Shown here: positions 22,754 through 54,262 of the stretch, in pieces
Position numbering within the stretch: position 1 is the first letter of the stretch
Layout: every line of letters begins with the position of its first letter
Virus record (IMG/VR): IMGVR_UViG_3300038393_001317
Length of the DNA stretch: 64,000 nt
Reading direction: 5' to 3' (one strand)
Origin: a virus
Translations under genes and position numbers: made by a program
Notes under the pieces: model-generated
Told to the model about the DNA's origin: nothing
Database searches by the model: none
Seen by the model: the letters and a program-made list of their open reading frames with translations, nothing else

Positions 22754-23458
22754 TTAGGCCGCCTTGGCCTTCGCAACCTTGGAAATCAGGTCGGTGGGAA
22801 CGGGCTGGCCGGAGCGCAGGCACACGTCGATCGTGGTGAGACCGACGCCGTCGATCAGCTTCTGGTCATAGGCGGAGTGCGCCTTGAGCATGAACTCCTC
22901 GGCCGACACTTCCGCGCCGCCCTCACCGCCCTTGGCGAGCGTGCCTTCGCCGCCCTGGCCGCCTTGGCCCTGGCCGCCGGCGCCCGCGCCGCCCTTGTCG
23001 TGGATGGCGATGACCGTCTTGCGGCCGCGCCCTTCGCCGCGCAGAGCGGTGACCTGCTCGCCCAGCGACTTGATCATGGCGTTCTGCTTGCCGATCACGT
23101 CCATGGTGATCGTCAGCGACTTGGTGAGCGCCGCTTCGGTGTTGTCCAGGCGCGCCGTGAGCGCCTTCACCAGCTCGGTGCCGTCCTCGGCCTCGACCTC
23201 GGTCCCGTCGGCCAGGGTGACCTTGAGGGACTTGGTGAGCGTCTGGCCGCCTTCGCCGCCTTCGCCGCCGGCCGCGCCGCCTTCGCCCGCGCCGGCACCT
23301 TCGCCCGCACCGGCCTGGCCTTCGCCGCCGCCTTCACCACCTTCGCCACCCGCGCCGGCACCGGCGCCTTCGCCGCCCGCCGGAAGCGACTTCGCGAGGG
23401 TATCCGTGCCTGCCTGGGCCTGCTCGAGGTCCGCCAGCAGCTTCTGGAATTGACTCAT
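22754..23458 (-). CDS. scaffolding protein candidate
   Basis: 234 aa from ATG 23458 (ATGA overlap with protease stop). Coiled-coil-like segments flank two acidic Gly/Glu/Ala tracts. Position is protease->MCP. Confidence 0.65.
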   Translation of the reverse strand: MSQFQKLLADLEQAQAGTDTLAKSLPAGGEGAGAGAGGEGGEGGGEGQAGAGEGAGAGEGGAAGGEGGEGGQTLTKSLKVTLADGTEVEAEDGTELVKALTARLDNTEAALTKSLTITMDVIGKQNAMIKSLGEQVTALRGEGRGRKTVIAIHDKGGAGAGGQGQGGQGGEGTLAKGGEGGAEVSAEEFMLKAHSAYDQKLIDGVGLTTIDVCLRSGQPVPTDLISKVAKAKAA

Positions 23459-24381
23459 GATTTGCTCCGTTTGTTGAGACCAGTTTTCAAATCGCGCACG
23501 AAGCGCTCGACCCATTCAGCCGCTTGGTCGGACGGCAAGCTGAAATGTTTGGCGGCGTACGAGACGAGCTCGTTCGCACCGGGGTTCTCGCCGACCACGC
23601 CCGTGCGGACGTACTCGGCCAATTTCTCGCGGAACTCGTGGTAGTTCCTGGGGGCCTGGCCGCGATCGAGCGACTGCATGCCCAGCGCGGCGCCGCCGGT
23701 CTTGGCGGCCGCGTCCGTTGCGTAGCTGGCCTCGAGGGCTTTCGCCAGGTCGAAGCCGTCGGCGCCGAAGCACTTCGCGAACGCGCCCATCGGCAGCGTT
23801 GCGCACTCCGGCACGTGCTGGTTCACCGGCGTCTTGCTGAAACCGATGTTGGTCCAGCGGACCTTTTGGACGATCGCCTTGCGCAGCTTGGTCGCAGGGT
23901 CGATCACGACCTTGGTCGCGGACTTGTCGATCGCGCCGCCGACCGACGGGTACCAGCGCTGCGGCGGCTGGAGCTCGGTAAGCGACGACCAGAACTCATT
24001 GGCGCGCGCGGCCGCGATGCCGTCGCCGGCGTAAATCTCGCACTTGACGAACGTCGACTTGCCGTTCTGGCGCACGTCGACCGGCCGGCCAATCTCGTAC
24101 AGGTTCGCGTCCGGGATGCCGGGCCAGCCCTTCGCCGGGTTCGGCTTGCCGATCAGCGTGTAGTGCTCGAGGTCGATGTTGCCGTAGCGCTTGAAGTACT
24201 CGGCGGACTCGGCGAGCGCCTTCGCGGCGACCACCTCGTTTTGCTGGTCCAGACCCTCGTTGCTGGCCTCGCAATACAGGAACCGGCGGCCGCCATCCGT
24301 CGACGGCGTCGCCTTCAACATCGAGCCGATGCTGATAAACGAGGGGACGGCCGCGAGCAGGCTTTCGTCGGACTGCAACAT
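23455..24381 (-). CDS. prohead (maturation) protease candidate
   Basis: 308 aa upstream of scaffold/MCP, with segments such as EASNEGLDQQNEVV and IDLEHY. Assignment is mostly positional. Confidence 0.6.
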   Translation of the reverse strand: MLQSDESLLAAVPSFISIGSMLKATPSTDGGRRFLYCEASNEGLDQQNEVVAAKALAESAEYFKRYGNIDLEHYTLIGKPNPAKGWPGIPDANLYEIGRPVDVRQNGKSTFVKCEIYAGDGIAAARANEFWSSLTELQPPQRWYPSVGGAIDKSATKVVIDPATKLRKAIVQKVRWTNIGFSKTPVNQHVPECATLPMGAFAKCFGADGFDLAKALEASYATDAAAKTGGAALGMQSLDRGQAPRNYHEFREKLAEYVRTGVVGENPGANELVSYAAKHFSLPSDQAAEWVERFVRDLKTGLNKRSKS

Positions 24382-30122: not shown

Positions 30123-30445
30123 AGCCCGGCGTCCGGGTCCTGGAGCGTGTAGACCTCGCCGTGCGCGTCGGTGACGGTCGGCCGGCCCAGGTTGAACGTG
30201 GCGTTCTGGCGGTACTCCTGGGCGGCCGCCTGCAGCGCGGCGTCCAGCGACGTGACGGCCTCGGGCGCCATGCGCGCCATGGCGTCGGGCTCCTCGTAGT
30301 CGCCGAGCAGGTGCAGGTTCTCGCGGGTGTAGAACTGCTTGAGGAGCGCCTTCACGAACCACCAGTAGGGGCCGAAATTGCGGTAGCGCCGCGGGTCCTG
30401 TTGCAGGAGCTGGAGCGTGCTTTCGGCGAATGCGCGGGCGTTCAT
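30116..30445 (-). CDS. hypothetical 109-aa protein
   Basis: ATGA overlap with the 2157-aa gene; normal composition (..FGPYWWFVKALLKQFYTRENLHLLGDYEEPD..). Confidence 0.7.
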   Translation of the reverse strand: MNARAFAESTLQLLQQDPRRYRNFGPYWWFVKALLKQFYTRENLHLLGDYEEPDAMARMAPEAVTSLDAALQAAAQEYRQNATFNLGRPTVTDAHGEVYTLQDPDAGLS

Positions 30446-33400
30446 TTGGCGGTCTCCAGGCTTTCCGCGATGAGCTCGCGCATGGTCTTTCCTGAGCTCG
30501 AGTGGTGACTCGTGTAGTAGCCGCCGTAGCCGCTGTACGGCGCGAACTTGCCGGTCAGGCCGTACTCGCGAAGCTGGTTGGGCGTCATGTCCAGGATGCC
30601 GGCCTGGTCGGCGGCATGGTGCAGGTGCTGGAGCAGGGCGCGCGAGTGGTTCCAGCCCTGCGCGAGCACGCGCACGGTCTCGGCGTCGATGTTCGCCTTG
30701 TGGTGCCGGCGGCCGCCCTCGAGCATCGCCTCCGCCAGGTCGTTGTGGCCGGACTGGAGCGCCATCTTCAACAGGGCGTTGTGCACGCTCAGGTCGTGCG
30801 CGCCGGCGATCGCGTAGTTCGAATGCTTCTTGTCGAACACCGCGGACATGGGCTTGCCCAGGTCGCCCAGGTGCCGCGCGCGCGCCCAGAGCATCGTGAG
30901 CGCTTCCTTCGGATAGCGCGCGGTCATGCCGGCGTCGCCGTACGACTCGTTGCGGCCCTCGACTTTCGCCAGCGGGTAGATGGCGTCGAACGCGTCCTTG
31001 ATCGAGCCGGCGCGGCGAATGCGCTGCATCTGCTCGGACTTCATGCGCTCCTTCGCCTCCTTCACCAGGGGCGCGTCGACGCCGTACGTGCGGGAGTCGC
31101 CGCCCAGGCGCTGGAGCGCCGCCTTGAACGGGTTAACGTGCTTCCCGTCGTAGCGCGTGCCGGCGTACTCGCGAGCCGCCGTGCTGTAGGACTTGTTGCG
31201 GCCGCGCTTGCCGCTCGACGCATGGAAGTGCGAGCCGATCTTCGCGCCGCGGCGCGCATCCATGAACGCCTGGATGGCCTTTTCCTTCGCGTCGCTGGTC
31301 GGGAGCAGGTAGTCGTGCGTGTCGTGCTTGTCGCGAGCGTGATAGCTTTCGACGGACTCGAGCGCGCCGGTCTCCTTGTTGATCATGGTCACGTCGCCGT
31401 ACGGCATCGTGAACTTGTAGTCCTTCATGCCCTGCTTGATGCGCTCCTGGAGCATGTCCTTGTTCTTGTCGATGACGGCCGTCGGCAGCGCCGCAATCTC
31501 CTCCCACTTCGAGATGCCGTCCAGCTTCTCGGCGGCCGCGGCTTCGAACTTCTCCTGGGCCTCCTTGCCTTCGGCTTCGGCGTCGTACTTGAACAGCGCG
31601 GCGTCCTTGAGCTCGTCCAGCTTGACGGTCGCTCGCTTGCCGCCCTCGAGGTCGGCGTAGCGGCGGATGGTCACGGTACCGTCGCGCATGTTGACGCCGG
31701 TGACCACGACCTTGCCCTCGCCGGGCATCTCGAGGCCGACGTTGGCCGTCAGCGTCGCGCCGGTCGCCGGGTGAATCAGCGTGTCGCTCGCGCTGTCCAG
31801 CGCGGACTTCGCCGGCCAGTACTTGTTGTTGAACAGCGACGTTTTCGCCGCCTCGATGCGATCGCGCAGCATCGTCGCCGACTTGGTTTCCTTGTTCTTG
31901 AGGGCACTGTAGCTGCGCGACAGGTCCACGAAGCGAACGAACTGCTTCTGGGCGTCGGCGCGCTGGTCGGCCTCGTACCGCTTCATGGCGGCCGACTTGT
32001 CCTCATCGAACTTCTTGCGGGCCTCGTCCGGGTCGGCCGACAGCATGATGCGCATGTCGTCCAGGGTCAGGTTGCCCTCGCGCGCCAGGTTCTCGACGCG
32101 ATCGCCGCCATTCCAGAGCAGGTCCTGCCAGTCGCGCTTGGCGTGCACGGCCTGGTAGCGGTAGCCGTCGAAACTGCCCTTCGCCAGGTACGAGTGAGTG
32201 CGCACCGACTCGTTCAGGTTGCCCTGGCGGATGCCGCGGCCCAGGCGCTGCTGCACCGTGGCCGGCTCCCAGGGAATGTCCAGCTCGTGAATGTCGGTAG
32301 TGGTCTTTTGCAGGTTCAGGCCCTCGGCCATCGTGACGTTGCCGATGACGACCTTGAGCTTGCCGGCGTTGAACTTGTCGGCGATGTTCTGGCGCTTGAC
32401 CGCGGAGCCCGCGACCTGGGCGTTGATGATGCCGATTTGCTCGCGCGGAATGCCGGCGTCGACCAGGGAGCGCACGATCTTGTCGTGCGTCGGCACCGAC
32501 TCGCAGAACACGATTTGGCCGCCCTCCTTCGCGCCGGCGACGACGTGCTTCGCCAGCTCCTCGAGCTTCGGCGATCGCGCGCCCTCGTGGCCCAGGAGCG
32601 CCAGGTCCAGGGCGGCCTTGCCCATCTTGTCCATGATGGAGAAGATGTGGCTGTCGCCCGTGGCGTCCTTCTTGCCAGACGACTCCTCGGCCAGCGCGCG
32701 CAGCTCGGCGTAGATGTTCTGTTGCGCCGGCGTCATGTCGACCAGGTGCGTCTGCTGGTCGCGCTCCGGCAGCTTGAGGCCCACGTCCTGCGCGGTGCGC
32801 CGGTCGATGAACCGGAACATGATTTCGCGCAGCTCGTCCAGGTTCTTGAACCCGGACACCACGAGCGCGTCCTCGATCGAGCCGTTCGTGCCCAGGACCT
32901 TGTCCTGCTGAAACTCGCAGAAGCGGTCCAGGAACTCCTCGCTGTTGCGGATGCCGATGTTCTCGAACGCCTCCGGCGCGATATGCGACAGCATCGAGTA
33001 AATCTCGAGCGGGCTGTTTTTCGTCGGCGTCGCCGTCAGGCCGTAGATGCCCTTGCCGTTGCCGCCGTTCTCGCGCACCCAGCGGGTCTTGAGGTTGAAG
33101 TCCAGGGCCCGGTTGGAGAGGCCCTGGCCGCCCAGGAACTTCGGGTTCTCGCCGAAGCGCGCGCGCGCCGCGTAGAGGTTTTTCTGGTGGTGCATCTCAT
33201 CGGCGATGAGCATGTCCACGCCCAGGTCATCGAACCAGATCGCGTCGGTGCGGTCGGCGAACTCGCGCTGCGCCAGGTGCTGCTCGAACTTCTCGCGGAT
33301 GGCCTTGCGCCGCTTGTCGCCGGCGTTGCCCAGGGCCTCGCCGCGCTGCACCCAGAAGTCCTCGCCGTAGTACTTCTCCTTGGTCTCCGGATTGAGGTCG

Positions 33401-36400
33401 ACCTCCTCGAACGCCGGCTCGCTGATGAACACAAAGTCGTAGTCGTTCTGCGTCAGGTCGTGGTACTTGCGCTTGCGCTCCGCGGCGTCGTCGTCGCGGC
33501 CGACCAGCTCGCCGGCCTTGTCGCGCGCGAAGTTGGCGCCGATCGTGAGCACGCGCGAGCCCGGGAACCAGACCTGGGACTCGGCGTACCAGTTGGCGAG
33601 CACCGACTTGGGCACGACGATGATCGGGCGCTTCGCGGTGCCCTGCATCTTCGCCATACGCGCCAGGAGCAGGCCGCCCAGCGTCTTGCCCAGGCCCACG
33701 TCGTCCGCGATGATGCCCTTGCCGTCCGCCAGGCTGCGGCGCAGCGACGACCAGCGCCAGGCGCGCACGTCGCGGTCCGTCGTGAGGCCCGGCACGTCCA
33801 TGGGCTCGTCGGAAAAGTCGCGCTGCACGAAGCCGCGGAACTTGCGGTTGTAAAGGTCCTCGACCGCATCGCGGTACTGCGATGCGCACAGCCACTGCTT
33901 GAACTCGTCGTTCAGGCGCTCGAGCTGAGGCAGGTCCTCCTCTTTGCGCACGCCGGTGCGATTGAGGTACTTGTCCAGGAGCTTCGACGTGCCGTACTCG
34001 TTGCCGCCGCGGATGATGTAGACGCCGTCGCGGAAGGTAATCTCGACGGGCTTCTGCTTGCGCGTCCACTCGTTGGCCTGGTCGCTGTCGTACTGCTTCC
34101 AGTTGAAGAACGCCTCGACCACGTGCAGCGGCAGGAAGGCCGAATTGAGCTGGACCTCCACGTCCTCCAGGGCCTTCGGGTCGATCGCCTTCTCGAGGCG
34201 CGACACCTGGTCGGCGAGCTTGTCCTGGAGCGCGTGACCGCCGGCGAGCGCCGCCTTCGCGGCATCCAGCTTCGGCCACAGCTCGCCCGTCAGGTACATG
34301 CTCATGGGCGTCCAGCGGCCCTCGCTGACCCACGCGTAGCGCGCATCCGCGGCGAGCTGGTCCTCGACTTCGGCCAGGTCCTTGCCCAGGCGCTCGGCGA
34401 GCTCGGCGGCCGTGAAGTCCGCGGACTTCGCCTCCAGCGCCATCGCTTCGGCGGTCACGTCGAAGCCGCCCTCGAGCGCGCGCGAGCCCTTGCCCAGGAC
34501 GGCGTCGGACAGCTCGCCCTGGCGGTTGACGGCGCCGACCAGGCGGAACAGGCGCTTGTCCGACGACGCCGCGGTCATCAGGTCCTTGTTGTCGGCCGGG
34601 ATGCCATGCTTCGCCACCCAGGCGCGCACGTCGGCCTCGAGCTGCGGCCGGTTCACGGCCTGGCCGTTGAACAGGCGGTCGATTTCCGCGGCGATCGGGC
34701 CGGCGTCGGCGATCGCCGGCGCCTGCATGAACTCGTCCACGCGATGCCAGCGCGGCGGGTCGCCCTGCAAGATGTACTGCACGCCGTCGACGGTTTTCAC
34801 GTCGCCGACCTTGGCCGTCGTGAGGTACGGACGATCGCGCTGCGCGGCGTTGCGCGCACGCTCGCGCGTCTCGTCGTTCGTGATCGTCTCGAGCACCTGG
34901 TCGACCGTCAGCTCGGTCGCCGGGCGCGACTCGCTGTCCGCCGTGAAGGCCGCCAGGGCCTCGGGCACACCGGCCATGGAGCCGTTGACGGTAATGTCGT
35001 TGCCCATGCCGGCCTGGGCGCGCCAGCCCGGGCCCATGGTGCCGAGAATGTTCGCGGCGCCGCGGCCGGTGAAGTACGAACCGGCGATGAACTCCTCGTC
35101 CCAGACGCCCAGCTTCTTGAGCGCGGCCTGGTCGTCGGCGACCTTGTCGTCCAGGACGTTGAGCGCCTGGCCGACGGCGTCGGGCCGCTTGCGGAAGTAC
35201 ACCACGTCGGTGGTCACTTCGGTATGCGAGTGCTCGAACGCGGTGTTCGGCATGCGCTGGGCGCCCAGGAACTCGGCGCGGCACAGCCAGCCCTGGCGCA
35301 TCGAGCGCGCGGAGCTCGAGTCCAGGATGCCGGTCGGCACGACCAGGGCGATGATGCCGCCGGGCTTCGCCTTGTCGATCGCGGTGTCCACGAAGTACTG
35401 CTCCGCGGTGCCGATTTGCTTCTTGTCGTCCTTCGCCAGCATGCCGCGCGGGCCGTACGGCGGGTTGCCGATCACCACGTCGAACTGGCGGTCGTCCATG
35501 GTTGCGAAGCGCTCGAACGCCGCGGTGTGCACCTCATGGCGATCGCCATGCAGCACGGTCGCGACGGTCGCGCTCACCGGGTCGAGCTCGACGCCGGTGA
35601 CCTTGAAGCCGGCGGGCGCGGTATGCAGGAACACGCCGGTGCCGCACGACGGCTCGAGGGCGTCGCCGTGCGTGATGCCCAGGGAGCCGATGACTTCCCA
35701 CATGGCGCGGGTTACGTCCGGGTCGGTGTAGTACTCGTTCAGGCTGTCGCCGCATCCGCCGTTGCCGCTGTACTGACGCATGAGCGCGCGGTCGGCGCCG
35801 TCGTACGGGCCGCCCTGGGCGATGCGTGCCGCCACCTGGTTGTTGATCGAGCGGCGGTCGGCCTTGCTGATGCCGGCCGCCACGCCGAAGGGGGCCGAGC
35901 GGTCGTGCGTGTCGATCGCCGGCGTCTCGGGTTCCGCGGGTTTCGTTTCAGCCGGCGGGGGATTCGTCTCGCCTTTGGGCGCTTTCGTTGCGCGCTTCGG
36001 CTTCTTGTCCTTGCCCTTGAAGTAGTCGCGGTACGCGCGGCCGAAATGCTTCTGGGCGTCCAGCTCCTCCTGGAGCGTCGTGCGCTGGCCCGACATGAGG
36101 TTCATGCGCAGGTCGCCGCTGCCGGCCAGAATCTCGTCCTTCTGCTTGCCCAGGCGATCGCGCAGGCCCGTCAGCGTCTCGAGGTGCCCGGCGAGCTCGT
36201 CCAGCTTGGCGGCGTGCTTCTTGAACTCCGCGCGATGCGCGCCGACGGCGCCCTCGAACTGGCCCTCGCGGACCACGTCCGGTACCGGCGCCTTGCGCTG
36301 CGACTCGAGGCCGGCTTCGGCCTCGCGCATGGCCGTCTCGGCCTTGTTCTTTTTCGAGTGCGTGCGCTCCATCTCGGCGCGCACCTTGCCCATCTCGTGG

Positions 36401-36915
36401 TAGTGGGTCTCGTGTTGCGTGCGGTGCAGCTCGAGCCAGCGCCGGCGATCGGCGTCGCTCAGGCCGCGCAGCGACTGGCGCGGCGTCGGCGCCGGGTGCT
36501 CGTCGTCGGTCGATCGCCGCTCCTCATCCCCAGTGTTTTCAACGACTTGCGCGGGTTCGGCCGCTGCAGGCGCAGGCGACGGCGTGAACATATCCGGCAC
36601 GGGCGCCGGCGCCGGCGCAACGCCCGGGAACTGCGCGGCGACCTGCTCGGGCGTGATGCCGCCCAGCTTCGCCATCTCGACGTACAGCCGCTGCTGGTGC
36701 GCCGCGGACATGGACGACAGCGTGCGCGTCATGCCGGCGACGCCGCCGTGCTTGTCGATGAACGCTTGCAGCCGGCCGTGATGCGCTGGGTGAACACCCT
36801 TCTTGCGCATCGCGGTGTGCTCCGGGATGACAACGCCGTCCTTGCGCACGTGCGTCGCCACTCGCACGGGCGTGTCGAACAGGGCCAGTTGGGATTTCTG
36901 GAAAAGGATGATCAT
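30442..36915 (-). CDS. 2157-aa N6-adenine-type (NPPY) DNA methyltransferase + SNF2/DExH helicase protein (P1 DarB-like architecture)
   Basis: Motif I LEPSCGTGVFL and motif IV VVIGNPPYGP (about nt 35176-35793). Helicase IIADDVGLGKT, MLIADEMHHQKN, LTATPTKNSPLE, QIVFCES...VIGNVTMAEGLNLQ...QQRLGRGIRQGN (about nt 32176-33783). Confidence 0.9.
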   Translation of the reverse strand: MIILFQKSQLALFDTPVRVATHVRKDGVVIPEHTAMRKKGVHPAHHGRLQAFIDKHGGVAGMTRTLSSMSAAHQQRLYVEMAKLGGITPEQVAAQFPGVAPAPAPVPDMFTPSPAPAAAEPAQVVENTGDEERRSTDDEHPAPTPRQSLRGLSDADRRRWLELHRTQHETHYHEMGKVRAEMERTHSKKNKAETAMREAEAGLESQRKAPVPDVVREGQFEGAVGAHRAEFKKHAAKLDELAGHLETLTGLRDRLGKQKDEILAGSGDLRMNLMSGQRTTLQEELDAQKHFGRAYRDYFKGKDKKPKRATKAPKGETNPPPAETKPAEPETPAIDTHDRSAPFGVAAGISKADRRSINNQVAARIAQGGPYDGADRALMRQYSGNGGCGDSLNEYYTDPDVTRAMWEVIGSLGITHGDALEPSCGTGVFLHTAPAGFKVTGVELDPVSATVATVLHGDRHEVHTAAFERFATMDDRQFDVVIGNPPYGPRGMLAKDDKKQIGTAEQYFVDTAIDKAKPGGIIALVVPTGILDSSSARSMRQGWLCRAEFLGAQRMPNTAFEHSHTEVTTDVVYFRKRPDAVGQALNVLDDKVADDQAALKKLGVWDEEFIAGSYFTGRGAANILGTMGPGWRAQAGMGNDITVNGSMAGVPEALAAFTADSESRPATELTVDQVLETITNDETRERARNAAQRDRPYLTTAKVGDVKTVDGVQYILQGDPPRWHRVDEFMQAPAIADAGPIAAEIDRLFNGQAVNRPQLEADVRAWVAKHGIPADNKDLMTAASSDKRLFRLVGAVNRQGELSDAVLGKGSRALEGGFDVTAEAMALEAKSADFTAAELAERLGKDLAEVEDQLAADARYAWVSEGRWTPMSMYLTGELWPKLDAAKAALAGGHALQDKLADQVSRLEKAIDPKALEDVEVQLNSAFLPLHVVEAFFNWKQYDSDQANEWTRKQKPVEITFRDGVYIIRGGNEYGTSKLLDKYLNRTGVRKEEDLPQLERLNDEFKQWLCASQYRDAVEDLYNRKFRGFVQRDFSDEPMDVPGLTTDRDVRAWRWSSLRRSLADGKGIIADDVGLGKTLGGLLLARMAKMQGTAKRPIIVVPKSVLANWYAESQVWFPGSRVLTIGANFARDKAGELVGRDDDAAERKRKYHDLTQNDYDFVFISEPAFEEVDLNPETKEKYYGEDFWVQRGEALGNAGDKRRKAIREKFEQHLAQREFADRTDAIWFDDLGVDMLIADEMHHQKNLYAARARFGENPKFLGGQGLSNRALDFNLKTRWVRENGGNGKGIYGLTATPTKNSPLEIYSMLSHIAPEAFENIGIRNSEEFLDRFCEFQQDKVLGTNGSIEDALVVSGFKNLDELREIMFRFIDRRTAQDVGLKLPERDQQTHLVDMTPAQQNIYAELRALAEESSGKKDATGDSHIFSIMDKMGKAALDLALLGHEGARSPKLEELAKHVVAGAKEGGQIVFCESVPTHDKIVRSLVDAGIPREQIGIINAQVAGSAVKRQNIADKFNAGKLKVVIGNVTMAEGLNLQKTTTDIHELDIPWEPATVQQRLGRGIRQGNLNESVRTHSYLAKGSFDGYRYQAVHAKRDWQDLLWNGGDRVENLAREGNLTLDDMRIMLSADPDEARKKFDEDKSAAMKRYEADQRADAQKQFVRFVDLSRSYSALKNKETKSATMLRDRIEAAKTSLFNNKYWPAKSALDSASDTLIHPATGATLTANVGLEMPGEGKVVVTGVNMRDGTVTIRRYADLEGGKRATVKLDELKDAALFKYDAEAEGKEAQEKFEAAAAEKLDGISKWEEIAALPTAVIDKNKDMLQERIKQGMKDYKFTMPYGDVTMINKETGALESVESYHARDKHDTHDYLLPTSDAKEKAIQAFMDARRGAKIGSHFHASSGKRGRNKSYSTAAREYAGTRYDGKHVNPFKAALQRLGGDSRTYGVDAPLVKEAKERMKSEQMQRIRRAGSIKDAFDAIYPLAKVEGRNESYGDAGMTARYPKEALTMLWARARHLGDLGKPMSAVFDKKHSNYAIAGAHDLSVHNALLKMALQSGHNDLAEAMLEGGRRHHKANIDAETVRVLAQGWNHSRALLQHLHHAADQAGILDMTPNQLREYGLTGKFAPYSGYGGYYTSHHSSSGKTMRELIAESLETAK

Positions 36916-36941: not shown

Positions 36942-36957
36942 ATCATCCTGTCACGAT
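36942..36957 (-). promoter_or_regulatory. ATCGTGAC-AG-GATGAT box variant, overlaps TGA of upstream gene
   Basis: - strand ATCGTGACAGGATGATCTAGG..., 34 nt before ATG 36915. Confidence 0.35.
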
Positions 36958-38846
36958 TGCGTGCGGTCGCTATCCTCGCGCTCGCCGGAGACCGACGCCC
37001 GGGCCTGCACCTCGGGGTCATCGAACCTGGCGGCCCAGATCGGCGCCAGGCGATCGAGGGCGCCGGCGTCGTGTTCGCGGAAACCGGCATCGAACGCGCC
37101 GTCGACGGCGTCCTCGGGACCGTTGTACGTGTAGTGCGCGCGCAACCCGCGCTCATCGAACACCTGGTAGCGGTACTTGCCCTCGTGGCTGGCGTCGGGC
37201 ATCAGCACGGCCCACTGCTTGCCGTTCTGGTGCCGCAGCTCGAAGCCGTCGCCGAACTGGCGGAAGTGCTCACGCACGGCCTCGCGCTGGGGATTGCCGC
37301 GGCGCTCGTACGGCGCCACGGGATGGCCCTCGCGGACGTAGCCGGCGACCATCGCCTTGAGCATGCCCGGCTTGTCGGCCGTCGCGCGGACCTTTTCCAC
37401 AAACTTGTCCACAGGCATGGTTACCACCTCTCCCAGGAACCGCGGGTCGTCGTAGTGCATGAGGTAGGCCGCGCGGGCCTGCTTTTCCGACAGGAAGCCG
37501 GCCATGACCTTGTCCTCGTCGTAGCGGCGCCAGGCCGACGCGGAAGGCGCGCCGTGCTTGCGTTGCCGCACGATGTAGACGTTCGGAGCGAAGGCCAGCG
37601 ACGGCCCCAGGTACACGTCGACCTCGTCGCCGTCGGCGCCCATCGAGTCCTCGAAGAACCCGTAGTCGTAGCGCATCTTGGTCGCGCCGCCAGGCCAGCG
37701 GCGGGTCGAGCCGGCCGGGTTTTCCACACGAACGGTGAGCCCGCGCCACTGCACGCGGGGCTTGAAGTACTCGCCCGACTTCGCCTGGGCGGCCGTCGGC
37801 GGCGTCCAGCCCTGAGCGAACAGGTCGACGTGGTGCACGGGCGCCGTGAAGAACCCGACCTGCTCGTCGCCGTCGTCCAGGATGGCCTTCGCCAGCACGG
37901 GCTCGAGGTCGCCGCCGTACTTCTTGGGCACGACGCGCGACAGAATCTCCTTGATCTTGTCGAACTTGGTCGGGCCCGACAGGCCGCCGAGCTCGTGCAG
38001 CTTCGAGCGCATCACGTTCGCGTCCGCGGTCACGCCCGGCACGTCGGAGACGTAGCACTCGCGAATGACCTCCATGCGCTCCTCGAACCGCGGCGAGCTC
38101 ACCGCGCCCAGGATATGCAGGCGGTCGGGCAGGTAGTCGCCGGACAGGAGCTCGCGCAGGTCCGCGCCGCTCATGGCGGCCGCGGCCGACGGGATGCCGA
38201 CGACGAAGTCGGTACCGCCCAGCGCCGCGGCGACGCGATCGTAGGCTTCGCGCTGGTTCAGCGGCCCGCGCTGGAAGGGGACGATGACCTCGTGTCCGGC
38301 CTCCATCCACTCCTGGATTTGCTCGGCGTGCTCCTCGATCAGCTCGAGCGTCGCGACCTGGTCGCCGATCACGTCCGGCGCCACCATCATGAGCAGGTTG
38401 CGGTACCGGTACGGCGTCTCCTCGCAGATGCGGCGCGACAGCTCCGAGTACTTCGCGAACACCGGCCCGAAGTTGATGCGCGCGTTCTCCGGCTTGCCGG
38501 CGCGCATCGCCGCCTTGAACGCATTGAAGGCGCCGGAGTCCACGAACACCGGCTTTTTCTCGCGGCGGATGGCTTCGGCGATGCGGTCCATGCCGAACGA
38601 CGACAGCTCGCCGATTTCCGTGCCCAGGCCGGCCGGCGACTCGATCGCCGCCTCCATGTCGCGCCGGCGACTCATGCCGGACGCGTACGGGAACGGCGTC
38701 ACCTGGTCGCCGCCGGTGGGCTCGCGCAGCTCGAGCGACACCTGGGCGGGCTTCGCTGACGGCCGCTTGTCGTCGTGCGCGCGCACCACGGTGCCGTCCT
38801 TCTTGGTGTAGCCCTTGACGTGGGCCTTCGCCAACACAATCAGCAT
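36951..38846 (-). CDS. 631-aa cargo-block protein: leader + possible TGT/DpdA-like barrel + inorganic-pyrophosphatase-like domain
   Basis: Start trimmed to ATG 38846 (AAGGA SD), giving MLIVLAKAHVKGYTKKDGTVVRAHDDKRP. PVFVDSGAFNAF resembles the DSGxF motif of transglycosylases. VENPAGSTRR...YDYGFFEDSMGADGDEVDVYLGP resembles the family I PPase YGF..DGDP.DV motif. Confidence 0.8.
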   Translation of the reverse strand: MLIVLAKAHVKGYTKKDGTVVRAHDDKRPSAKPAQVSLELREPTGGDQVTPFPYASGMSRRRDMEAAIESPAGLGTEIGELSSFGMDRIAEAIRREKKPVFVDSGAFNAFKAAMRAGKPENARINFGPVFAKYSELSRRICEETPYRYRNLLMMVAPDVIGDQVATLELIEEHAEQIQEWMEAGHEVIVPFQRGPLNQREAYDRVAAALGGTDFVVGIPSAAAAMSGADLRELLSGDYLPDRLHILGAVSSPRFEERMEVIRECYVSDVPGVTADANVMRSKLHELGGLSGPTKFDKIKEILSRVVPKKYGGDLEPVLAKAILDDGDEQVGFFTAPVHHVDLFAQGWTPPTAAQAKSGEYFKPRVQWRGLTVRVENPAGSTRRWPGGATKMRYDYGFFEDSMGADGDEVDVYLGPSLAFAPNVYIVRQRKHGAPSASAWRRYDEDKVMAGFLSEKQARAAYLMHYDDPRFLGEVVTMPVDKFVEKVRATADKPGMLKAMVAGYVREGHPVAPYERRGNPQREAVREHFRQFGDGFELRHQNGKQWAVLMPDASHEGKYRYQVFDERGLRAHYTYNGPEDAVDGAFDAGFREHDAGALDRLAPIWAARFDDPEVQARASVSGEREDSDRTQS

Positions 38847-40012
38847 GGTCCGTCCTTCTCGCCGAACGCGCCGGCCGGCAGCTTCCACTGGTCCGGCGGC
38901 ACGACGATCGGCCCCGTCCAGGTCTTGGAATTGCCCAGCGCCGCCACCTCGGGCTGGTCGATCGCCGCCTGGTACGCGCGGCCCTTGCCGGCGCGCGTCA
39001 TCAGGTCCTCCTTGCGGTGGATGGTCACGCCGAACTCGCGCTCGCGCTGCGCCACCTTGCCGGTCTCGTTCGGGTACAGCTTGTGGTTCGTCGCAATCTG
39101 ATTCGGGCCGGCGAAGATGCAATTCCGGCACGACAGGCGGCCGTAGCCGAGCTGATACGACGGGTGCGGCACGACGCCGTGCTTGCGCATCACGTCCCAC
39201 ACCTGGGCCTCACTCCAGCCGTGCACCGGCCGGTAGTGGTCGACGTGGCGCGTCGAGCTGTGCGCGCGATCGGGCTCGAACGCCTTGTAGTTCGCGCGGT
39301 TGGAGCTCTCCTCGGCGCGCTCGCCGGTCACGATCAGCGTGCGCTTGCCGGTGAACCGTTCCTGGTTCCGGACGGCCGCGGCCATCACGTCGACCTTGAG
39401 GGCGCCGCTGCACCAGCGCGTCGTGAGGTTGGCGGACTGCTGGGGGAATTTCCTGCGCGTGCCCAGCGGTCCATGTTCGCCGCCAGCGCGCCCGCGGGTT
39501 CCGTCCGGCTTCTCGAAGATGACCGGCGCGGTGCGCTGGTTCTCGCGCAGCATCTCGCGCTCGAAGCCGCCCTCGCGCCAGGAGAAGTAAATCGGGACGC
39601 CCAGGGCCTCCGCGATCTTCCGGCAGTAGTCTTTGGTGATCGGCCAGTCCATGAAGGACGCGCCCTCACCGTCAATGTCGTGATGGTGCAGCTCGATCTT
39701 CGCCGGCGGCACGCCGTTCTCGAGGAGCGCCAGGACGCAGGCGATGCTGTCCTTGCCGCCGCTGAATCCGACCAGGACCTTGTCGTAGCTGGCGAGGTCG
39801 GGCCCGGGCGCGATCGCGACCGCGGAGCCGTGAGCTGAGATGGAAAACACCTTGGGCGCATGCTCCTCGAACAGGTCGCGCTGCTTCGCCTGGTCGGCGG
39901 TCACGGCCGGCGGCGGCCGCGGCGTCGGGCGCTTGTCCTGGTGCGGCGCCACCGCGGTGCCGTCGCGCTTGACGTAGCCCTTCACGTGGGTCTTGAGCAG
40001 GAGCACGGTCAT
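38840..40012 (-). CDS. PP-loop ATPase / PAPS-reductase-like protein with shared leader
   Basis: Start trimmed to ATG 40012 (ATGA overlap with MuF stop), giving MTVLLLKTHVKGYVKRDGTAVAPHQDKRP. PP-loop VLVGFSGGKDSIA. Later TTRWCSGALK and SCRNCIF. Confidence 0.8.
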   Translation of the reverse strand: MTVLLLKTHVKGYVKRDGTAVAPHQDKRPTPRPPPAVTADQAKQRDLFEEHAPKVFSISAHGSAVAIAPGPDLASYDKVLVGFSGGKDSIACVLALLENGVPPAKIELHHHDIDGEGASFMDWPITKDYCRKIAEALGVPIYFSWREGGFEREMLRENQRTAPVIFEKPDGTRGRAGGEHGPLGTRRKFPQQSANLTTRWCSGALKVDVMAAAVRNQERFTGKRTLIVTGERAEESSNRANYKAFEPDRAHSSTRHVDHYRPVHGWSEAQVWDVMRKHGVVPHPSYQLGYGRLSCRNCIFAGPNQIATNHKLYPNETGKVAQREREFGVTIHRKEDLMTRAGKGRAYQAAIDQPEVAALGNSKTWTGPIVVPPDQWKLPAGAFGEKDGPC

Positions 40013-41157
40013 TTGGACCCCAGCGTGTTGCGCAGCCACTCGGCGAACTTCGGGTCGTCGCCGGCCTGCTCGGCGATCGTCGGAACCCAGCGGCCGCGGC
40101 AGTGCGGGTGCTGCGTTCCTGCAGCCGGCCACCACAGCTCGTGCGGCTCGCGCTCGATCAACAGGCCGCCCAGGCGCTTGTGCAGCGCCGCGCTCCGGCC
40201 GACGTTCGTCTTGCCGGGCCAAATGTCGGTCTGGCCGTTCTTGTGAATGTCGCCGGCGCCGACGACGTTCATGACCCGCCCGTCAATCGTGCGGCAAAAC
40301 TTACACGCGCCCTTGTACTGCTCGATGCGCTTCACGCGCGCGCCGTGCGGCAGGCTGGCGATGTAGCCCTGGTTCTGGGCCTCGACGGTTTCGGTCACGG
40401 CGATGCGACGCCAGTCGCGATTGAGCTGCGCGAACTGGTCGCCGAGCTTGGTCTCGAGCGCGCCGGCGAGCGGAGCGTCGCCCAGGTGCACGGCATTGAC
40501 GTGTTGTGCGATCGTCTGGCGCATGCGGTGCCGCACGTCGTTCGAGACCTCGCGCACGTTCTCGGCCGTGCTGGCGATCGCGTACTCGAGGCCGGCGCGC
40601 TGCGGCCGCGTGAACGGGAACAGGTCGATCGCCGCCTGGGCGGTGAGCGGCAGCGCCGCGATGACCTGGTCGGCCTGGGCCGCGGTGACCTGGTCCATGT
40701 TGGCCTGCACGCGGCCCATGATCGTCGCGCGCGTCGCCAGCCACTCGGCCTCCGCGCGCATGTCGTCCGCCGGCAGGTAGCGCTGCGTCAGCCAGTCGAC
40801 CATCATCATGTGGTCCTCGAGGGTCCACTCGCCAGGCGGCAGGTGCTCGAGGTACAGCTTCACCAGGTCCAGCTCGCCGCGCGACCAGCGCTCCATGACG
40901 CCGGCGGGCCGCGCGACGCGGTCCATACCGGGTCGATGCCGGGCGCCGTCGGACCACGCCTTGAGCTCGCGACGGAACGCCTCGAGTCGATCGAGACCGC
41001 GTTGCGTGAACAGCTCCACCAGGCGCGCGACGAACGGGTTGTCGACGGGGAGCCAAATGTCCTCGCCGTTGTGGTCGTGGATGGCCTTGTAGATCAGGTT
41101 GAGCGCCATGTCCGTCTGTTCGGCGGATAGCGGCTCGAGGTCGACAAACAGGCCCAT
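40009..41157 (-). CDS. MuF / SPP1 gp7-like minor head protein
   Basis: RIAVTETVEAQNQGY, CKFCRTIDGRV and GTQHPHCRGRW match the Mu F-family pattern as I know it. Confidence 0.75.
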   Translation of the reverse strand: MGLFVDLEPLSAEQTDMALNLIYKAIHDHNGEDIWLPVDNPFVARLVELFTQRGLDRLEAFRRELKAWSDGARHRPGMDRVARPAGVMERWSRGELDLVKLYLEHLPPGEWTLEDHMMMVDWLTQRYLPADDMRAEAEWLATRATIMGRVQANMDQVTAAQADQVIAALPLTAQAAIDLFPFTRPQRAGLEYAIASTAENVREVSNDVRHRMRQTIAQHVNAVHLGDAPLAGALETKLGDQFAQLNRDWRRIAVTETVEAQNQGYIASLPHGARVKRIEQYKGACKFCRTIDGRVMNVVGAGDIHKNGQTDIWPGKTNVGRSAALHKRLGGLLIEREPHELWWPAAGTQHPHCRGRWVPTIAEQAGDDPKFAEWLRNTLGSK

Positions 41158-42115: not shown

Positions 42116-43614
42116 TTTGCTTTCCTAACCAACATGATCATTTTCGATGAAGTCTGGGATTTTTGCAAGGGCCGCTCGTCGCTTTTTTGCGACGCGCCCG
42201 GCTTGCCGTCCTTGCCGGCGGGTTTCGCCTCCGGCTGAGCGCCGGCCGTGGCCTGGGCCCAGGCTTTGCCGTACAGGTCCTTCTGCTCTTTCAGCGCCTC
42301 GTAGAACTTGGTGTGGTCCTCGTCGGACCAGGCGTCCGTGGGCGCCGGCTCGTTGTACTTCGCGCGCAGCGATCGACACACGCCGTAGGCATGGTGACCG
42401 TGGTCTTTCGCCAGGGTCATCGCCTTCACATGCACCTGGAGCTCGGCGAGCATGCCGTTGGGCAGCTTCACGATCGTCATTGCGTCGCGGTAGCCCTCGC
42501 TGGTCGGCTCCGCGAACCGGTCCTTGGGTTGCTGCGCCAGCTCGACGCCGGACTCTTTCAGCTTGGCGAGCGCCGTTTTCACGTCCGCCATCGTCGGCAC
42601 GCTGATCGTCGCGCGGACAATGTCGCGGAGCTGCGACCAGTCGCCGTCGTAGTCGGCCATGACCTTTTCCTTCGCGCGCGACTCGCTTTTCAGCGGCGCC
42701 ACGAACACGAAGCCCTGCTCGCTGGCCCAGTCCTCGGGCGTGAGGTCGTCGGGCCGCTTGCCCTCGACCAGGCCCATGGACTTCGCGATGCCGGACAGTT
42801 GCTCCTTGAACTGGTTCAGGCCCTCGGTGCCGTGCTTGACCAGGTCCTCCCAGGTCTTGTGCGGCTGGTTCACCTTCTTGGGCAGCTTCGCGGTCTCGGC
42901 CTGGTCGAACACGGCGTCGCCCTTCGCCGGCGGCTCACCGGCGTCCGCGGCCGGCCGCGCCTCGTGCGGCGAGCTCGTCGGCTTGCCGCCGCCTTCCCAG
43001 TGGTGCGTCACGGCGCCGTGGCGGACGCGATGCTCGCCGCCGGCGTCGTCCTTCACGGTGACGCCATGCTGGCCGGCGGCCGTCACCTGGCCGTGCCCGC
43101 GGTGCGCGCCGTTCACGAAGCCGACATGCCGGCCGGGTTGCGCCGGCGCGGCCGCCTGGTCGGTGCTGACCCAGCGCTGCGTCTGCACGCCGTTCTTGTC
43201 GGTGACCTGCTTCTTGACCAGGCCCGGTCGGTTCGCGAGCGGCCCGCCCTTGAACAGGAGCACGGGGCGGCGCGGGTCAAAGGCTTTCGCGATCACGAGC
43301 GGGTCCTCTTTTGCCTCGTTGGGCGTTGCGACGTAGCGGCGCCGGCCGGCCTGGTCCTGGAGGAGCATGCCGTCCTCGCCCTGGTCGATGATTTGGCCGC
43401 GGATGGCGACGCGCGACTTGTGGCCCAGGACCTTGTCCCAGGTGATCTTGTGGTGGGCGCCGTCAATCTCGCCGGTGACGCCATGCTTGCCGTGCGCGGC
43501 GACGCGGCACGTGCACGGCTGGCCCTCGTGGTGGACGTACAGCTCGTCGCCGACCTCCACACCAGGCCGGCGCTCCGGCTCCTTCTGGGTCTTGCCCGGG
43601 GCCTTCGGCGTCAT
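42112..43614 (-). CDS. 500-aa protein with C-terminal RelA/SpoT (RSH) nucleotidyltransferase-like domain
   Basis: PLKSESRAKEKV...LRDIVRATISV...SEGYRDAMTIVKLPNGMLAELQVHVKAMTLAKDHGHHAY (about nt 42280-42852). N-terminus has two HG(K/Q)HGVTG-type repeats. ATGA overlap with portal stop. Confidence 0.75.
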   Translation of the reverse strand: MTPKAPGKTQKEPERRPGVEVGDELYVHHEGQPCTCRVAAHGKHGVTGEIDGAHHKITWDKVLGHKSRVAIRGQIIDQGEDGMLLQDQAGRRRYVATPNEAKEDPLVIAKAFDPRRPVLLFKGGPLANRPGLVKKQVTDKNGVQTQRWVSTDQAAAPAQPGRHVGFVNGAHRGHGQVTAAGQHGVTVKDDAGGEHRVRHGAVTHHWEGGGKPTSSPHEARPAADAGEPPAKGDAVFDQAETAKLPKKVNQPHKTWEDLVKHGTEGLNQFKEQLSGIAKSMGLVEGKRPDDLTPEDWASEQGFVFVAPLKSESRAKEKVMADYDGDWSQLRDIVRATISVPTMADVKTALAKLKESGVELAQQPKDRFAEPTSEGYRDAMTIVKLPNGMLAELQVHVKAMTLAKDHGHHAYGVCRSLRAKYNEPAPTDAWSDEDHTKFYEALKEQKDLYGKAWAQATAGAQPEAKPAGKDGKPGASQKSDERPLQKSQTSSKMIMLVRKAK

Positions 43615-45368
43615 GGTTCGATGCGCAGCACCGGCAGGCCGAACGACTTCTGGAGGCTGGCCTTCTCGTCGTCGCTCGGGCCGGCGCCGCCCTCCTCGAG
43701 GTCCTGGTCGTCATCGCCGCCGGCGTCCTGGCCGCCAGGCTGACCGAAGTCCTCCTCGCCGCCGTCGCCGAAGTCCTGGCCGCCCATCGCAGACGGGTCG
43801 GACTGGCCGGGCATGCCGAAGTCCTGCTCCTGCGGCATGGCCTCTTGCTGCCAGGCGGCGACGAGCGCGGGATTGAGCGGGGCATCGCCCCAGGTTTCCT
43901 TGATCGGCTTGCGGCCGTCCTCGGCGCGCACCTCGTTGACCGTCATCGTCTGCTTCTTGCGGTCCCAGACGGTGGCCTCGTCCTCCTCGTCCAGGCCGGT
44001 CCACACGAACTCGGCGTCCTCGTTGAAGTCGGCGACGATGTAGTCGGTGAACAGGTTCTGGAAGTACGACAGCAGCGGGCGCAGGCCCTTGTCCTTCGAG
44101 CTGGCGATCTTCTCCTCGGTGTCGGAGCCCGACAGGCTCGAGGTGCCGTTGGTGAACGACTCGAAGTTGATTTCGTCCGGCGCCATGCCGTAGATCGCGC
44201 AGATGATCGACGCGAGAAACGTCATCCACTTGCCGAACATCAGCTCGGACGCCGGCTCGCCGAAACTCTCGAATTTCGCCGCGGACTCCTGGTCCTTCGA
44301 CACCATCACGGGCAGCGCATGGGCATTGTTGATGCCCTTGACCATGCCGTTCCAGTAGCGCTTGAACGCCTTAATGTCGTCGTCGCTGTAGGCGCCGAAC
44401 AGGTTCAGCACGCCGCGCGGCATCGCGTTCGAGTCGAAGAACTTGACGTTGTACGTGAACGCGTTGAGGAAGCCGGTCACCACGCGAATCAGCAGCTCGG
44501 TCTCGCCCATGCCGTAGCCGCCCGACAGCACGTCGGTGCGCGGGTTGCGCGGCACGTAGACCAGGTCGTCGTACGTGTACGCGCTGCGAATGTTCCCCTG
44601 CACGAGCTGGATAGCGAAAATCTCGTCGTCGCCACGGTAGCCCTGCTCGGTGCACAGGCGGATGGTCGCGCCGTCGACCGCGTAGATGCCGTCGATGCCC
44701 AGGCTGCGATCGCGCTTGAACTCGGTCTCGATCGGCGCGGCGTCCATGGTGAGCGAGTCGCGGACCAGCTTCGCCATGAACGTGCTCATGTCGTCGCGCT
44801 TCAAGCGCTGACGCATGCGCGGCTTGAACTCGAAGCCGCCGTGCGAGAAGAACTTCTCGAGGAGCTGCAGGGACTTGGTCTGGTCCTCGCCGAGCTCCGC
44901 CTTTTTGTCGCGCATGCTGACGCGGAAGCCCGGGCCCTTGCCGTCGGCCTGCGGCCGGCAAAAGCGCTGCACCTGGCGGATGCGCGTCATGATCACGGCG
45001 TTCAGGATGGGCGTCGACTCCACCATCTGGCGCATGGCGTCGAACGAGAACACGCCCTGGCGCTCGTAGTAGTCGCCCATCACGCCGATTTGCACGTCGT
45101 CCAGGTAGACCGACTGCATGCCGGGCTTGCGATCGCGCGCCGCGGCCGACGGGAGCTGGATGACGTTGTTCTTGCGCAACGCCTTGGTCATCGCCTGGTC
45201 CTCGTATCCGTCCTGGATGAACGTGAGGAGCGGCGCCAGGCGCTCGAGGTTGATCAATTCCGCGGAGACCTGGCCCATGGCCCCTTTTTGGAGCTGCGTC
45301 ATTGCGTCCTGACGCTCGTCGGCCGGTGCACGCGGGTCGTGGGCGACGCTGAGGGCGGAGTCCTTCAT
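43611..45368 (-). CDS. portal protein
   Basis: 585 aa at the head of the morphogenesis operon, with an acidic D/E/G-rich C-terminus. Size and position are typical. Box upstream. Confidence 0.75.
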   Translation of the reverse strand: MKDSALSVAHDPRAPADERQDAMTQLQKGAMGQVSAELINLERLAPLLTFIQDGYEDQAMTKALRKNNVIQLPSAAARDRKPGMQSVYLDDVQIGVMGDYYERQGVFSFDAMRQMVESTPILNAVIMTRIRQVQRFCRPQADGKGPGFRVSMRDKKAELGEDQTKSLQLLEKFFSHGGFEFKPRMRQRLKRDDMSTFMAKLVRDSLTMDAAPIETEFKRDRSLGIDGIYAVDGATIRLCTEQGYRGDDEIFAIQLVQGNIRSAYTYDDLVYVPRNPRTDVLSGGYGMGETELLIRVVTGFLNAFTYNVKFFDSNAMPRGVLNLFGAYSDDDIKAFKRYWNGMVKGINNAHALPVMVSKDQESAAKFESFGEPASELMFGKWMTFLASIICAIYGMAPDEINFESFTNGTSSLSGSDTEEKIASSKDKGLRPLLSYFQNLFTDYIVADFNEDAEFVWTGLDEEDEATVWDRKKQTMTVNEVRAEDGRKPIKETWGDAPLNPALVAAWQQEAMPQEQDFGMPGQSDPSAMGGQDFGDGGEEDFGQPGGQDAGGDDDQDLEEGGAGPSDDEKASLQKSFGLPVLRIEP

Positions 45369-53378: not shown

Positions 53379-54077
53379 TCAGTCGTGGTCGTTCCTGGTG
53401 TCCAGGACGGGCCGCATTGTCACGGTGAGCGCGTCGCCGGCGGCCAGCGGTGCGGTGTCGCTCAGGTCGACGCGGTCAACCAGGGTCGCGGTCTCGCGCG
53501 TCGCAATAGCCGGCACGGGCAGGTCGCCCAGGCGCAGCAGGCCGCGCGCGACATTCACGTCGTCGTCGCTGTACGGCGTCTCCTCCTCGATCGCGTTCGC
53601 CTCGCGCACGCCGCCCGGGTGCCGCATCATGCGGTGCAGGCGGTCGGCCAGCGCCGGCCAGGTGCGGCAGGTGCCGGCGGGCCCGAAGTGAATCAGGGCG
53701 CCGCGGAACTTGTCGCAGTTGGCGCGGTGCGGGCGGTCGTCCACCAGCACGTCGCCGTCGTCGCCCAGCAGGCCCTTGTCGTGCGTCATGATGATGTTGC
53801 GACGCAGCGCCGGCAGGTACTTGAACACCCAGGCGGCCTTGTCACTGTACGCGTATGCGATGCCCGTCGGCGGTTTTGTTGCGATGAACGTCTCGAACCC
53901 GTACTGCCCAGCCAGGCTCAGGACCTTTGCCATGCCGGCGATCGCGCCCTCGAGCGGCGGCATGTTGAGGTAGGCGCCGGGCAGCTTCTTGACCTCGTCG
54001 CCGGTCAGGCTGTGGCGCTTCATGAACGCGTCGAAGTCCACCAGGACGCCGTCCATGTCGAAGAAAAGTCGCTTCAT
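53379..54077 (-). CDS. HAD-superfamily 5'(3')-deoxyribonucleotidase-like protein
   Basis: Start trimmed to ATG 54077, giving MKRLFFDMDGVLVDFDAF (DxDGVLxDF motif I), then IATKPP and VLVDDRP. Confidence 0.7.
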   Translation of the reverse strand: MKRLFFDMDGVLVDFDAFMKRHSLTGDEVKKLPGAYLNMPPLEGAIAGMAKVLSLAGQYGFETFIATKPPTGIAYAYSDKAAWVFKYLPALRRNIIMTHDKGLLGDDGDVLVDDRPHRANCDKFRGALIHFGPAGTCRTWPALADRLHRMMRHPGGVREANAIEEETPYSDDDVNVARGLLRLGDLPVPAIATRETATLVDRVDLSDTAPLAAGDALTVTMRPVLDTRNDHD

Positions 54078-54079
54078 GA

Positions 54080-54262
54080 TCAGTCCATCAGAAAGAGCCA
54101 GAGGATGCCGACGGCCGTCACCAGCTCGCCGGCGGTCTCGAGGCTCGAGCCAGGCTTGCCGATGCCCATAGCGAGCAGGCCCATGGCGAGCGTGATGAGC
54201 GCGGGCGCGTGTCGCTTGAGCTCCCACCACGGGTCATCGGGGTGCAGATTCTTGGAGCTCAC
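54080..54262 (-). CDS. small two-helix membrane protein (60 aa)
   Basis: GTG start in a GTGA overlap with the upstream stop; ..ALITLAMGLLAMGIG...LVTAVGILWLFLMD. Confidence 0.5.
   Translation of the reverse strand: MSSKNLHPDDPWWELKRHAPALITLAMGLLAMGIGKPGSSLETAGELVTAVGILWLFLMD

Follow-up and report, generated by a model that had tools for sequence, protein, structure and literature searches.

A DpdA-like barrel fused to a pyrophosphatase domain, beside a PAPS-reductase-fold enzyme, in the head-gene cluster of a myophage

Two adjacent minus-strand genes in the IMG/VR virus record IMGVR_UViG_3300038393_001317, analyzed as a stretch of 64,000 nucleotides (the window), encode proteins of 390 (gene A) and 631 amino acids (gene B). 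We found that gene B is a fusion of a barrel of the tRNA-guanine transglycosylase (TGT)/DpdA family, a known inorganic pyrophosphatase (InPase) domain, and a third module without an assigned function, and that gene A encodes a PP-loop enzyme with the fold of 3'-phosphoadenosine-5'-phosphosulfate (PAPS) reductases. The barrel is almost certainly homologous to DpdA/TGT enzymes with an intact active site, and its target is probably DNA. What is new is a DpdA-like subfamily in a polyvalent-cargo setting; InPase and polyvalent cargo were already known. A first-pass annotation of the window had singled out both open reading frames (ORFs), which are real, and every motif it quoted was found: the PP-loop, Cys201 and Cys295/298 of gene A, and DSGAF (residues 103-107) and the InPase motifs (residues 375-452) of gene B. 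The His244 motif of gene B is likewise present.

The identity of the barrel rests on profiles and invariant residues. Twelve of 20 barrel homologs matched phrog_887 (queuine tRNA-ribosyltransferase; best E 1e-11), and a barrel-family profile aligned to a profile of phage 9g DpdA in hhalign (96%, E 4e-9). Run on the whole genomes of phages 9g and Rosebush, the same profile had the DpdA/TGT gene as its sole match (16 and 12 bits). Across 147 barrel homologs, Asp103, Asp158, His244, Gly247, and Asp275 are invariant and Gln192 is 99% conserved, and global alignment pairs Asp103, His244, and Asp275 with Asp72, His196, and Asp215 of 9g DpdA. In the profile alignment the barrel has the acid/base Asp in a DSG motif, the base-binding Asp, and the nucleophile Asp of the superfamily, together with the His at 9g position 196 that marks DpdA1 (His244, 100% conserved). 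Residues shown to matter in Salmonella Montevideo DpdA (Asp95, Phe99, Asp130, His181, and Asp256; PMC10164549) correspond by motif order to Asp103, Phe107, Asp158, Gln192, and Asp275. The TGT/DpdA resemblance, at first put forward as weak evidence, is thus much stronger than was supposed.

The model of the barrel (predicted local distance difference test, pLDDT, 96) is a triosephosphate isomerase-type (beta/alpha)8 barrel, the fold of the TGT/DpdA superfamily though not specific on its own. Fold-search Z scores were 15.4 for aldolases, 13.2 for Cap10, 12.9 for bacterial TGT, and 12.3 for DpdA (Salmonella Montevideo, PDB 7ui4; root-mean-square deviation [rmsd] 4.2, 224 residues aligned, 12% identity), and Foldseek and VIA-align ranked epimerases and aldolases equal to or higher than TGT. 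Because these enzymes match the barrel equally well or better, we did not accept the fold as proof and turned to motifs and profiles instead. We dropped an aldolase reading, as the invariant residues follow the TGT pattern. Structure searches do not settle the identity; sequence comparison is the more specific guide.

The family is nonetheless distinct. The barrel had no significant match in Pfam, NCBIfam, or PADLOC, PDB sequence searches with genes A and B returned no matches, and tblastn found no match to the barrel among 50,697 phage records, with none found in cultured phages. The family profile had no match on nt-1, phiST, or HVTV-1, DUF6610 (DpdA4) reached only E 0.018 against the barrel, and the barrel did not cluster by sequence with DpdA1 to DpdA4. 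In a quick version of the tree the family forms one clade on a long branch, far from DpdA1. The marks of tRNA-acting bacterial TGT are missing, with no conserved Cys and no PF01702 match, and hhalign against E. coli Tgt gave 5%, aligning the DSG motif only; judged by the lack of conserved Cys, the zinc-binding domain of tRNA TGTs is absent. By homology the barrel would work like DpdA, yet it falls outside DpdA1-4 as described.

A profile search recovered 1,181 barrel clusters at 50% identity (1,035 at E <= 1e-10), in proteins that range from a 245-aa standalone form to a 7,054-aa giant. Most members are standalone and have no leader. The barrel also lies within leaderless proteins of 1,600-4,400 aa (L004, L005, L015, L022, L025, L041, and L118), so that at least two kinds of cargo protein have taken it up. 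The context of the family points to DNA. On an AT-rich viral contig (L014:5838-8771), the genes queD-queC-folE-queE and, directly after them, one of the barrel family stand behind a DNA polymerase gene. Among 86 barrel loci, a DNA methylase family occurs at 11, and Mom-like families occur in several groups. Other members are fused behind a shared N-terminal domain (L026, L030, L031, L032, L040, L044, and L053), probably ScoMcrA_N (PF26345), which was seen in the matching Atlas cluster. Standalone members are carried by 46 plasmids, mostly from Pseudomonas, and nearly all are unannotated. Most barrel carriers have no preQ0 pathway, and in this they resemble the DpdA-only phages. The complete close relatives G001 and G002, used in place of the window's own whole genome, lack QueC, QueD, and FolE; the set comprising FolE, QueD, QueE, and QueC within the same genome was not found there, and it is dispensable in the DpdA-only group.

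Three loci of this family may be recorded individually. An unannotated standalone barrel gene lies about 5 kb from mobA/traI on the conjugative Pseudomonas plasmid pG20 (L209:9001-9780), and another lies near a cytosine methylase on the conjugative Pseudomonas plasmid pHN39-SIM (L208:9037-9822). At L203:1889-2965, a DndB-family gene and a barrel gene are 5 kb apart in a neighborhood of ParA, SSB, RecT, and methylase genes; DpdB is related to the DndB family.

Behind the barrel, the InPase domain matched PF18823 with 107 bits (cut-off 26.8) and contains the acidic active-site motifs D-G-D-x-x-D and D-E-D-K. The family I pyrophosphatase predicted by the first-pass annotation is therefore present, as the middle module (aa 345-494) and not as the C-terminal half; the third module (aa 500-631) stands behind it. 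InPase is a general polyvalent-protein domain, described as characteristic of the polyvalent proteins of phages and as probably packaged (PMC5512222). The C-terminal module, whose core spans about residues 525-610, had no match in Pfam, NCBIfam, PHROGs, Atlas, or a homolog search, and it recurs as a domain of about 80 aa in the cargo polyproteins P0027, P0161, L011, and L058. Relatives show the modules rearranged, divided among genes, and lost independently of one another: InPase precedes the barrel in L007 and L221, is fused to PAPS-like domains in P0184, P0187, and P0191, and is encoded next to the barrel by a separate gene in L204, and in L064 the barrel is inserted into a DarB-like protein. 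All modules are under purifying selection, with ratios of nonsynonymous to synonymous substitution against the close relative L001 that run from 0.08 in the PAPS domain through 0.18 in InPase and 0.27 in the C-terminal module to 0.30 in the barrel.

Gene A matched PF01507 (42 bits, cut-off 22.5) and phrog_424 (E 3e-36). Its model (pLDDT 96) has as top structural match an adenosine-5'-phosphosulfate (APS) reductase (Z 13.9, rmsd 3.9, 199 aligned), and the PP-loop/PAPS-reductase fold originally assigned to this protein is borne out. Further structural matches are the thiolases TtuA and NcsA (Z 11-12), Cap9 (10.0), and QueC (9.3). Several named identities failed. Against CysH, the true APS/PAPS reductase, gene A scored 36.5 bits (threshold 154), with no conserved C-terminal catalytic Cys motif. 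The last residue in homologs is Thr in 39%, Ser in 23%, and Cys in 15%; because its own C-terminal Cys is not conserved, gene A is not a CysH-type reductase, and we rejected a role in sulfate assimilation for want of the reductase Cys motif. DndC scored 31.7 bits (cut-off 290), and PADLOC gave partial matches only, the best being BrxP, with 56 bits across one-sixth of the model. QueC/Cap9 was discarded since G001, whose gene A copy is 95% identical, has no QueC (PF06508) match.

Three cysteines with a PP-loop are the arrangement of iron-sulfur (Fe-S) sulfur-inserting enzymes. Given this arrangement, we suggest, with somewhat less than even confidence, that gene A adenylates and then transfers sulfur onto a nucleic acid; its conserved cysteines would be the ligands of an Fe-S cluster. 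No cysteine desulfurase was found in five close-relative records, and the host could supply one. Behind its leader, gene A also carries a Q-x-D-L-F motif, which we take to resemble a sliding-clamp-binding peptide. The motif stands behind the leader in 24 of 25 head-cluster homologs of gene A (among P0169-P0204), compared to 0.22 in shuffles. It recurs in the DarB-like protein (window 36877-36891), is overrepresented at both ends in short barrel proteins (13/90 and 9/101, compared to <1), and is absent from gene B. The motif, a predicted clamp binder, suggests a DNA target for gene A.

Both genes begin with the same kind of leader, which the first reading of the sequence had noticed on the PP-loop enzyme; it is common to genes A and B and the neighboring cargo genes within the head-cargo cluster, and is present in head-cluster homologs. 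The leader site occurs in 1 of 84 short homologs. A [LMF]-x-K-[AST] site falls within the first 14 residues in five of six cargo genes, and within the first 40 in 3 of 23 other genes. In the capsid, scaffold, protease, and portal proteins such sites number 7.3 per 1000 aa, compared to 0.87 elsewhere. They also lie at module borders in relatives, where M-[IL]-K-[AS] closes InPase in L002, L007, L064, L091, P0184, P0187, and P0191. A511-type capsids are reportedly processed at Lys-Ser. All seven close PAPS homologs that were looked up are inside a head module, and conflict domains are fused or clustered among head genes, as in polyvalent, head-packaged systems. The position of the sites at module borders, the seven homologs in head modules, the near lack of sites in short homologs, and, with less weight, the density of sites in head proteins are the grounds on which we consider delivery; packaging and cleavage of both products are likely, as predicted from these patterns.

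We favor an explanation in which genes A and B belong to a Dar-like enzyme kit packaged in the head, each as a cargo cassette of its own, independently recruited, leader-tagged, and injected, with protective preQ0-type insertion into phage DNA; the whole chain has, in our judgment, an even chance of being correct. The proteins would be made late and carried by their leaders into the prohead. The head protease would then cut after or within L-x-K-[AS] sites, removing the leaders and releasing the barrel, InPase, and the C-terminal module of the 631-aa protein as separate pieces, and the cargo proteins would enter the cell together with the DNA. There, the barrel, for which homology and an intact site are in hand, would act like DpdA: Asp275 would attack the sugar with Asp103 as acid/base, guanine would leave, and a 7-deazaguanine, most likely host preQ0, would enter phage DNA and mask it from restriction. 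InPase would clear pyrophosphate or nucleotide signals in general, and gene A would be an independent ATP-dependent, probably Fe-S, modifier of nucleic acid, most likely sulfur-inserting. We prefer this explanation because the catalytic residues are invariant and align with 9g DpdA, and because of the L014 operon, the methylase, Mom, and ScoMcrA neighbors, and plasmid carriage. Use of host preQ0 is proposed because the close relatives have no QueC, QueD, or FolE, and 9g DpdA by itself inserts host preQ0 in E. coli (PMC6884629).

Several observations weigh against this explanation. Aldolases outrank Cap10, TGT, and DpdA in the fold search. The barrel has G/A-I-P where 9g DpdA has Gly-Gly in the loop that reads the 7-substituent, and the incoming base may therefore differ from that of 9g DpdA. 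The operon-linked member (L014) sits on a long branch of the tree, QueC is encoded in 2 of 35 barrel-bearing viral records, and restriction may act faster than a few injected molecules can. In addition, we derived the site pattern post hoc from this window, so that independent support from relatives weighs more.

Genes A and B had initially been suggested to form one dedicated pathway of adenylation, pyrophosphate pull, and base exchange. In such a coupled pathway, modeled on QueC for DpdA or Cap9 for Cap10, gene A would make or modify the base inserted by the barrel and InPase would pull the adenylation. The two do occur together beyond chance: a PAPS-like domain lies within 8-10 kb of the barrel at 11 of 86 loci, three of them fusions, and nine of these co-occurrences pass a fixed BLAST threshold compared to 0.014 expected from cultured-phage density, a biased control. 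There are barrel-PAPS fusions (L017, L050, and L058) and adjacent genes (L011, L106, L221, and L224), the two are adjacent at two of seven further head-cluster loci, and the InPase-PAPS fusions also fit. However, the barrel family is found in none of 24 near-complete viral genomes with gene A's PAPS subfamily, and a barrel-like neighbor at 2 of 79 viral loci of that subfamily; conversely, PF01507 is missing from 14 of 17 near-complete barrel genomes, and three of 17 have any PAPS gene. Most co-occurring PAPS domains share only 26-32% identity with gene A, the close relatives L002, L007, L091, and L204 have barrel and InPase with no adjacent PAPS gene, and methylases co-occur with the barrel as often as PAPS domains do. 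Because InPase has many fusion partners, it argues only weakly for a specific pull, and no pyrophosphate is released by base exchange itself. We conclude that the pair is not obligate and that gene A is a separately inherited passenger; with the modules reassorting independently and InPase general, the dedicated pathway is not supported, and a coupled one is unlikely, though the two enzymes may have a looser functional link. The simplest reading of the co-occurrence is shared residence in DNA-modification and cargo hotspots. A predicted complex of gene A and the barrel scored 0.01 (mark 0.32), which gave no verdict and was not used as evidence, and we found no literature linking TGT-like with PAPS-like phage genes. 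At one locus (L173:9262-10474), the gene immediately after a PAPS member of gene A's subfamily is a different DpdA-like one, nearer to 9g DpdA than to the barrel family. A bolder variant, in which an injected, protease-matured kit rewrites phage DNA, the altered-pocket barrel inserting a base other than preQ0 and a clamp-targeted Fe-S gene A making or completing it, strikes us as a little less probable still; if true, it would be a new DNA modification installed by virion proteins.

On a par with that variant is late action, in which a DpdA-like barrel would modify progeny DNA in the producing cell, like Mu Mom, with packaging incidental or absent. The late-gene position, the many standalone members without a leader, and the post-replication action of all known DpdA (10.1101/2023.04.13.536721) fit such a role, but the leader is restricted to head-cluster versions and the barrel has repeatedly been built into giant polyvalent proteins (up to 7054 aa). 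Hardly different in its chances, and if anything slightly poorer, is an offensive effector, an injected barrel that excises guanine from host DNA or tRNA, or exchanges it there, and so aids take-over through abasic sites or mis-modified tRNA. A RelA/SpoT-like gene in the same cluster, ADP-ribosyltransferase (ART) domains in the same polyproteins, a clamp-like motif that could aim at host replication forks, and a substrate loop unlike that of DpdA would suit this role, whereas standalone members on conjugative plasmids, the member in a preQ0 operon, the company of protective methylases and Mom genes, and the lack of a zinc-binding tRNA-TGT domain speak against it. The barrel might instead bind deazaguanylated proteins or deazaguanine nucleotides and jam type IV cyclic-oligonucleotide-based anti-phage signaling system (CBASS) or Qat-type defenses. 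Cap10 is the top TGT-family structural match (rmsd 3.9, 225 aligned) and has a His plus Asp pair in common with the barrel (10.1101/2025.04.06.647259), but its Z score is tied within 1 with those of TGT and DpdA, the sequence profile favors DpdA1, and the genomic context is that of DNA modification. We regard a Cap10-like binder as very improbable.

The phage DpdA enzymes described so far are expressed as ordinary genes, in most cases next to genes for preQ0 synthesis. The barrel shares with phage DpdA1 (9g and Rosebush; PMC6884629) the order of catalytic motifs, including the His196 equivalent, and, as in DpdA-only phages, comes without preQ0 genes of its own. It differs in its separate long-branch clade, its minimal size (265 aa), and its G/A-I-P loop, and it is leader-tagged or fused into head cargo, whereas DpdA1 sits among replication genes. 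Compared to bacterial DpdA the barrel is much shorter, and the window has no dpdB-K cluster. With polyvalent proteins and P1 Dar (PMC5512222) the locus has in common InPase, RelA/SpoT-like, DarB-like, and MuF neighbors, the head context, and domain shuffling. The main text of that study has no TGT, PAPS, or PP-loop domain, and the cargo here also differs in its short, leader-tagged modules with putative head-protease sites at their borders; no MPTase domain was found in it. Gene A shares the PP-loop, the fold, and three invariant Cys with phrog_424 proteins, DndC, SspD, BrxP, and TtuA/NcsA-type thiolases, but lies far under the cut-offs for DndC/CysH-type enzymes and has a leader and clamp-like motif. 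Type IV CBASS also places a PP-loop enzyme (Cap9) beside a TGT-fold protein (Cap10; 10.1101/2025.04.06.647259), yet gene A is not of the QueC family, the genes are no obligate pair, and the context is a phage head.

These results describe a large DpdA-like family, without a significant Pfam match, in head cargo, giant polyvalent proteins, and conjugative plasmids. If it is active, base exchange would join the functions delivered by invaders at entry, and many phages and plasmids may bear 7-deazaguanine marks missed by current screens. The results also offer a handle on orphan phage PAPS-reductase-like enzymes, for which head recruitment and the clamp-like motif point to DNA and not to sulfur metabolism.

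Both genes lie in a myophage head-gene cluster (Table 1). The minus-strand order is terminase, portal, RelA/SpoT-like gene, MuF-like gene, gene A, gene B, DarB-like gene, a second SNF2 helicase, and the head maturation protease, then scaffold, major head protein, and later tail sheath; the position of the MuF-like gene after the portal is kept in relatives. Genes A and B overlap by 7 nt. Longer ORF-finder versions (460 aa for A, 749 aa for B) extend into the upstream genes, and we preferred the shorter starts because the shared leader and homologs support them. A search for terminator-like sites inside genes A and B and between them gave none.

Table 1. Coordinates of features in the window.
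Feature	Position	Strand	Remark
Terminase	50209-52329	minus	
Portal	43611-45368	minus	
MuF-like minor head protein, upstream of gene A	40009..41157	minus	weak PF06152, E 0.065
Gene A, 390 aa (P0001): leader, linker, PAPS-reductase-fold PP-loop enzyme	38840..40012	minus	
Gene A leader (aa 1-30): hydrophobic strand, L-x-K-[AST] site, basic HV.GY..RDG motif	39923..40012	minus	
Q-x-D-L-F motif of gene A (aa 44-48), like sliding-clamp-binding peptide	39869..39886	minus	
PP-loop of gene A (aa 84-89)	39746..39763	minus	98-100% conserved in 112 homologs
Span with Cys201, Cys295, Cys298 of gene A, candidate Fe-S ligands	39119..39412	minus	100% conserved
Gene B, 631 aa (P0002): three-module cargo polyprotein	36951..38846	minus	
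Gene B leader (aa 1-30), pattern as in gene A	38757..38846	minus	
DpdA/TGT-family barrel (aa 48-312), with Asp103, Asp158, Gln192, His244, Asp275	37911..38705	minus	
Internal L-A-K-A (aa 318-321), barrel/InPase border, putative head-protease site	37884..37895	minus	
InPase domain (aa 345-494)	37365..37814	minus	PF18823 E 7e-31
Internal M-L-K-A (aa 495-498), then second leader-like motif	37353..37364	minus	
C-terminal module (aa 500-631)	36954..37349	minus	no family match
DarB-like methyltransferase-SNF2 helicase, related leader, downstream of gene B	30442..36915	minus	
Head maturation protease, presumed processing enzyme	23455..24381	minus	phrog_1028 E 4e-36

In an independent run, a single contig of 52.6 kb spans the stretch with both genes, differing by 22 substitutions and without gaps. 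Near-identical DNA was found in soil and rhizosphere metagenomes from several studies, and no RNA dataset was among the listed sources of near-identical sequence. Elsewhere in the window are a separate DNA methyltransferase gene (58091-59251) and a 5'-3' deoxyribonucleotidase-like gene (53379-54230). In related head clusters, a Tad2-like anti-defense gene stands directly behind the portal (L220:5378-5629), and a RelA/SpoT-like gene is followed by a 70-aa gene and then an HD_4 hydrolase gene (L224:4708-7449).

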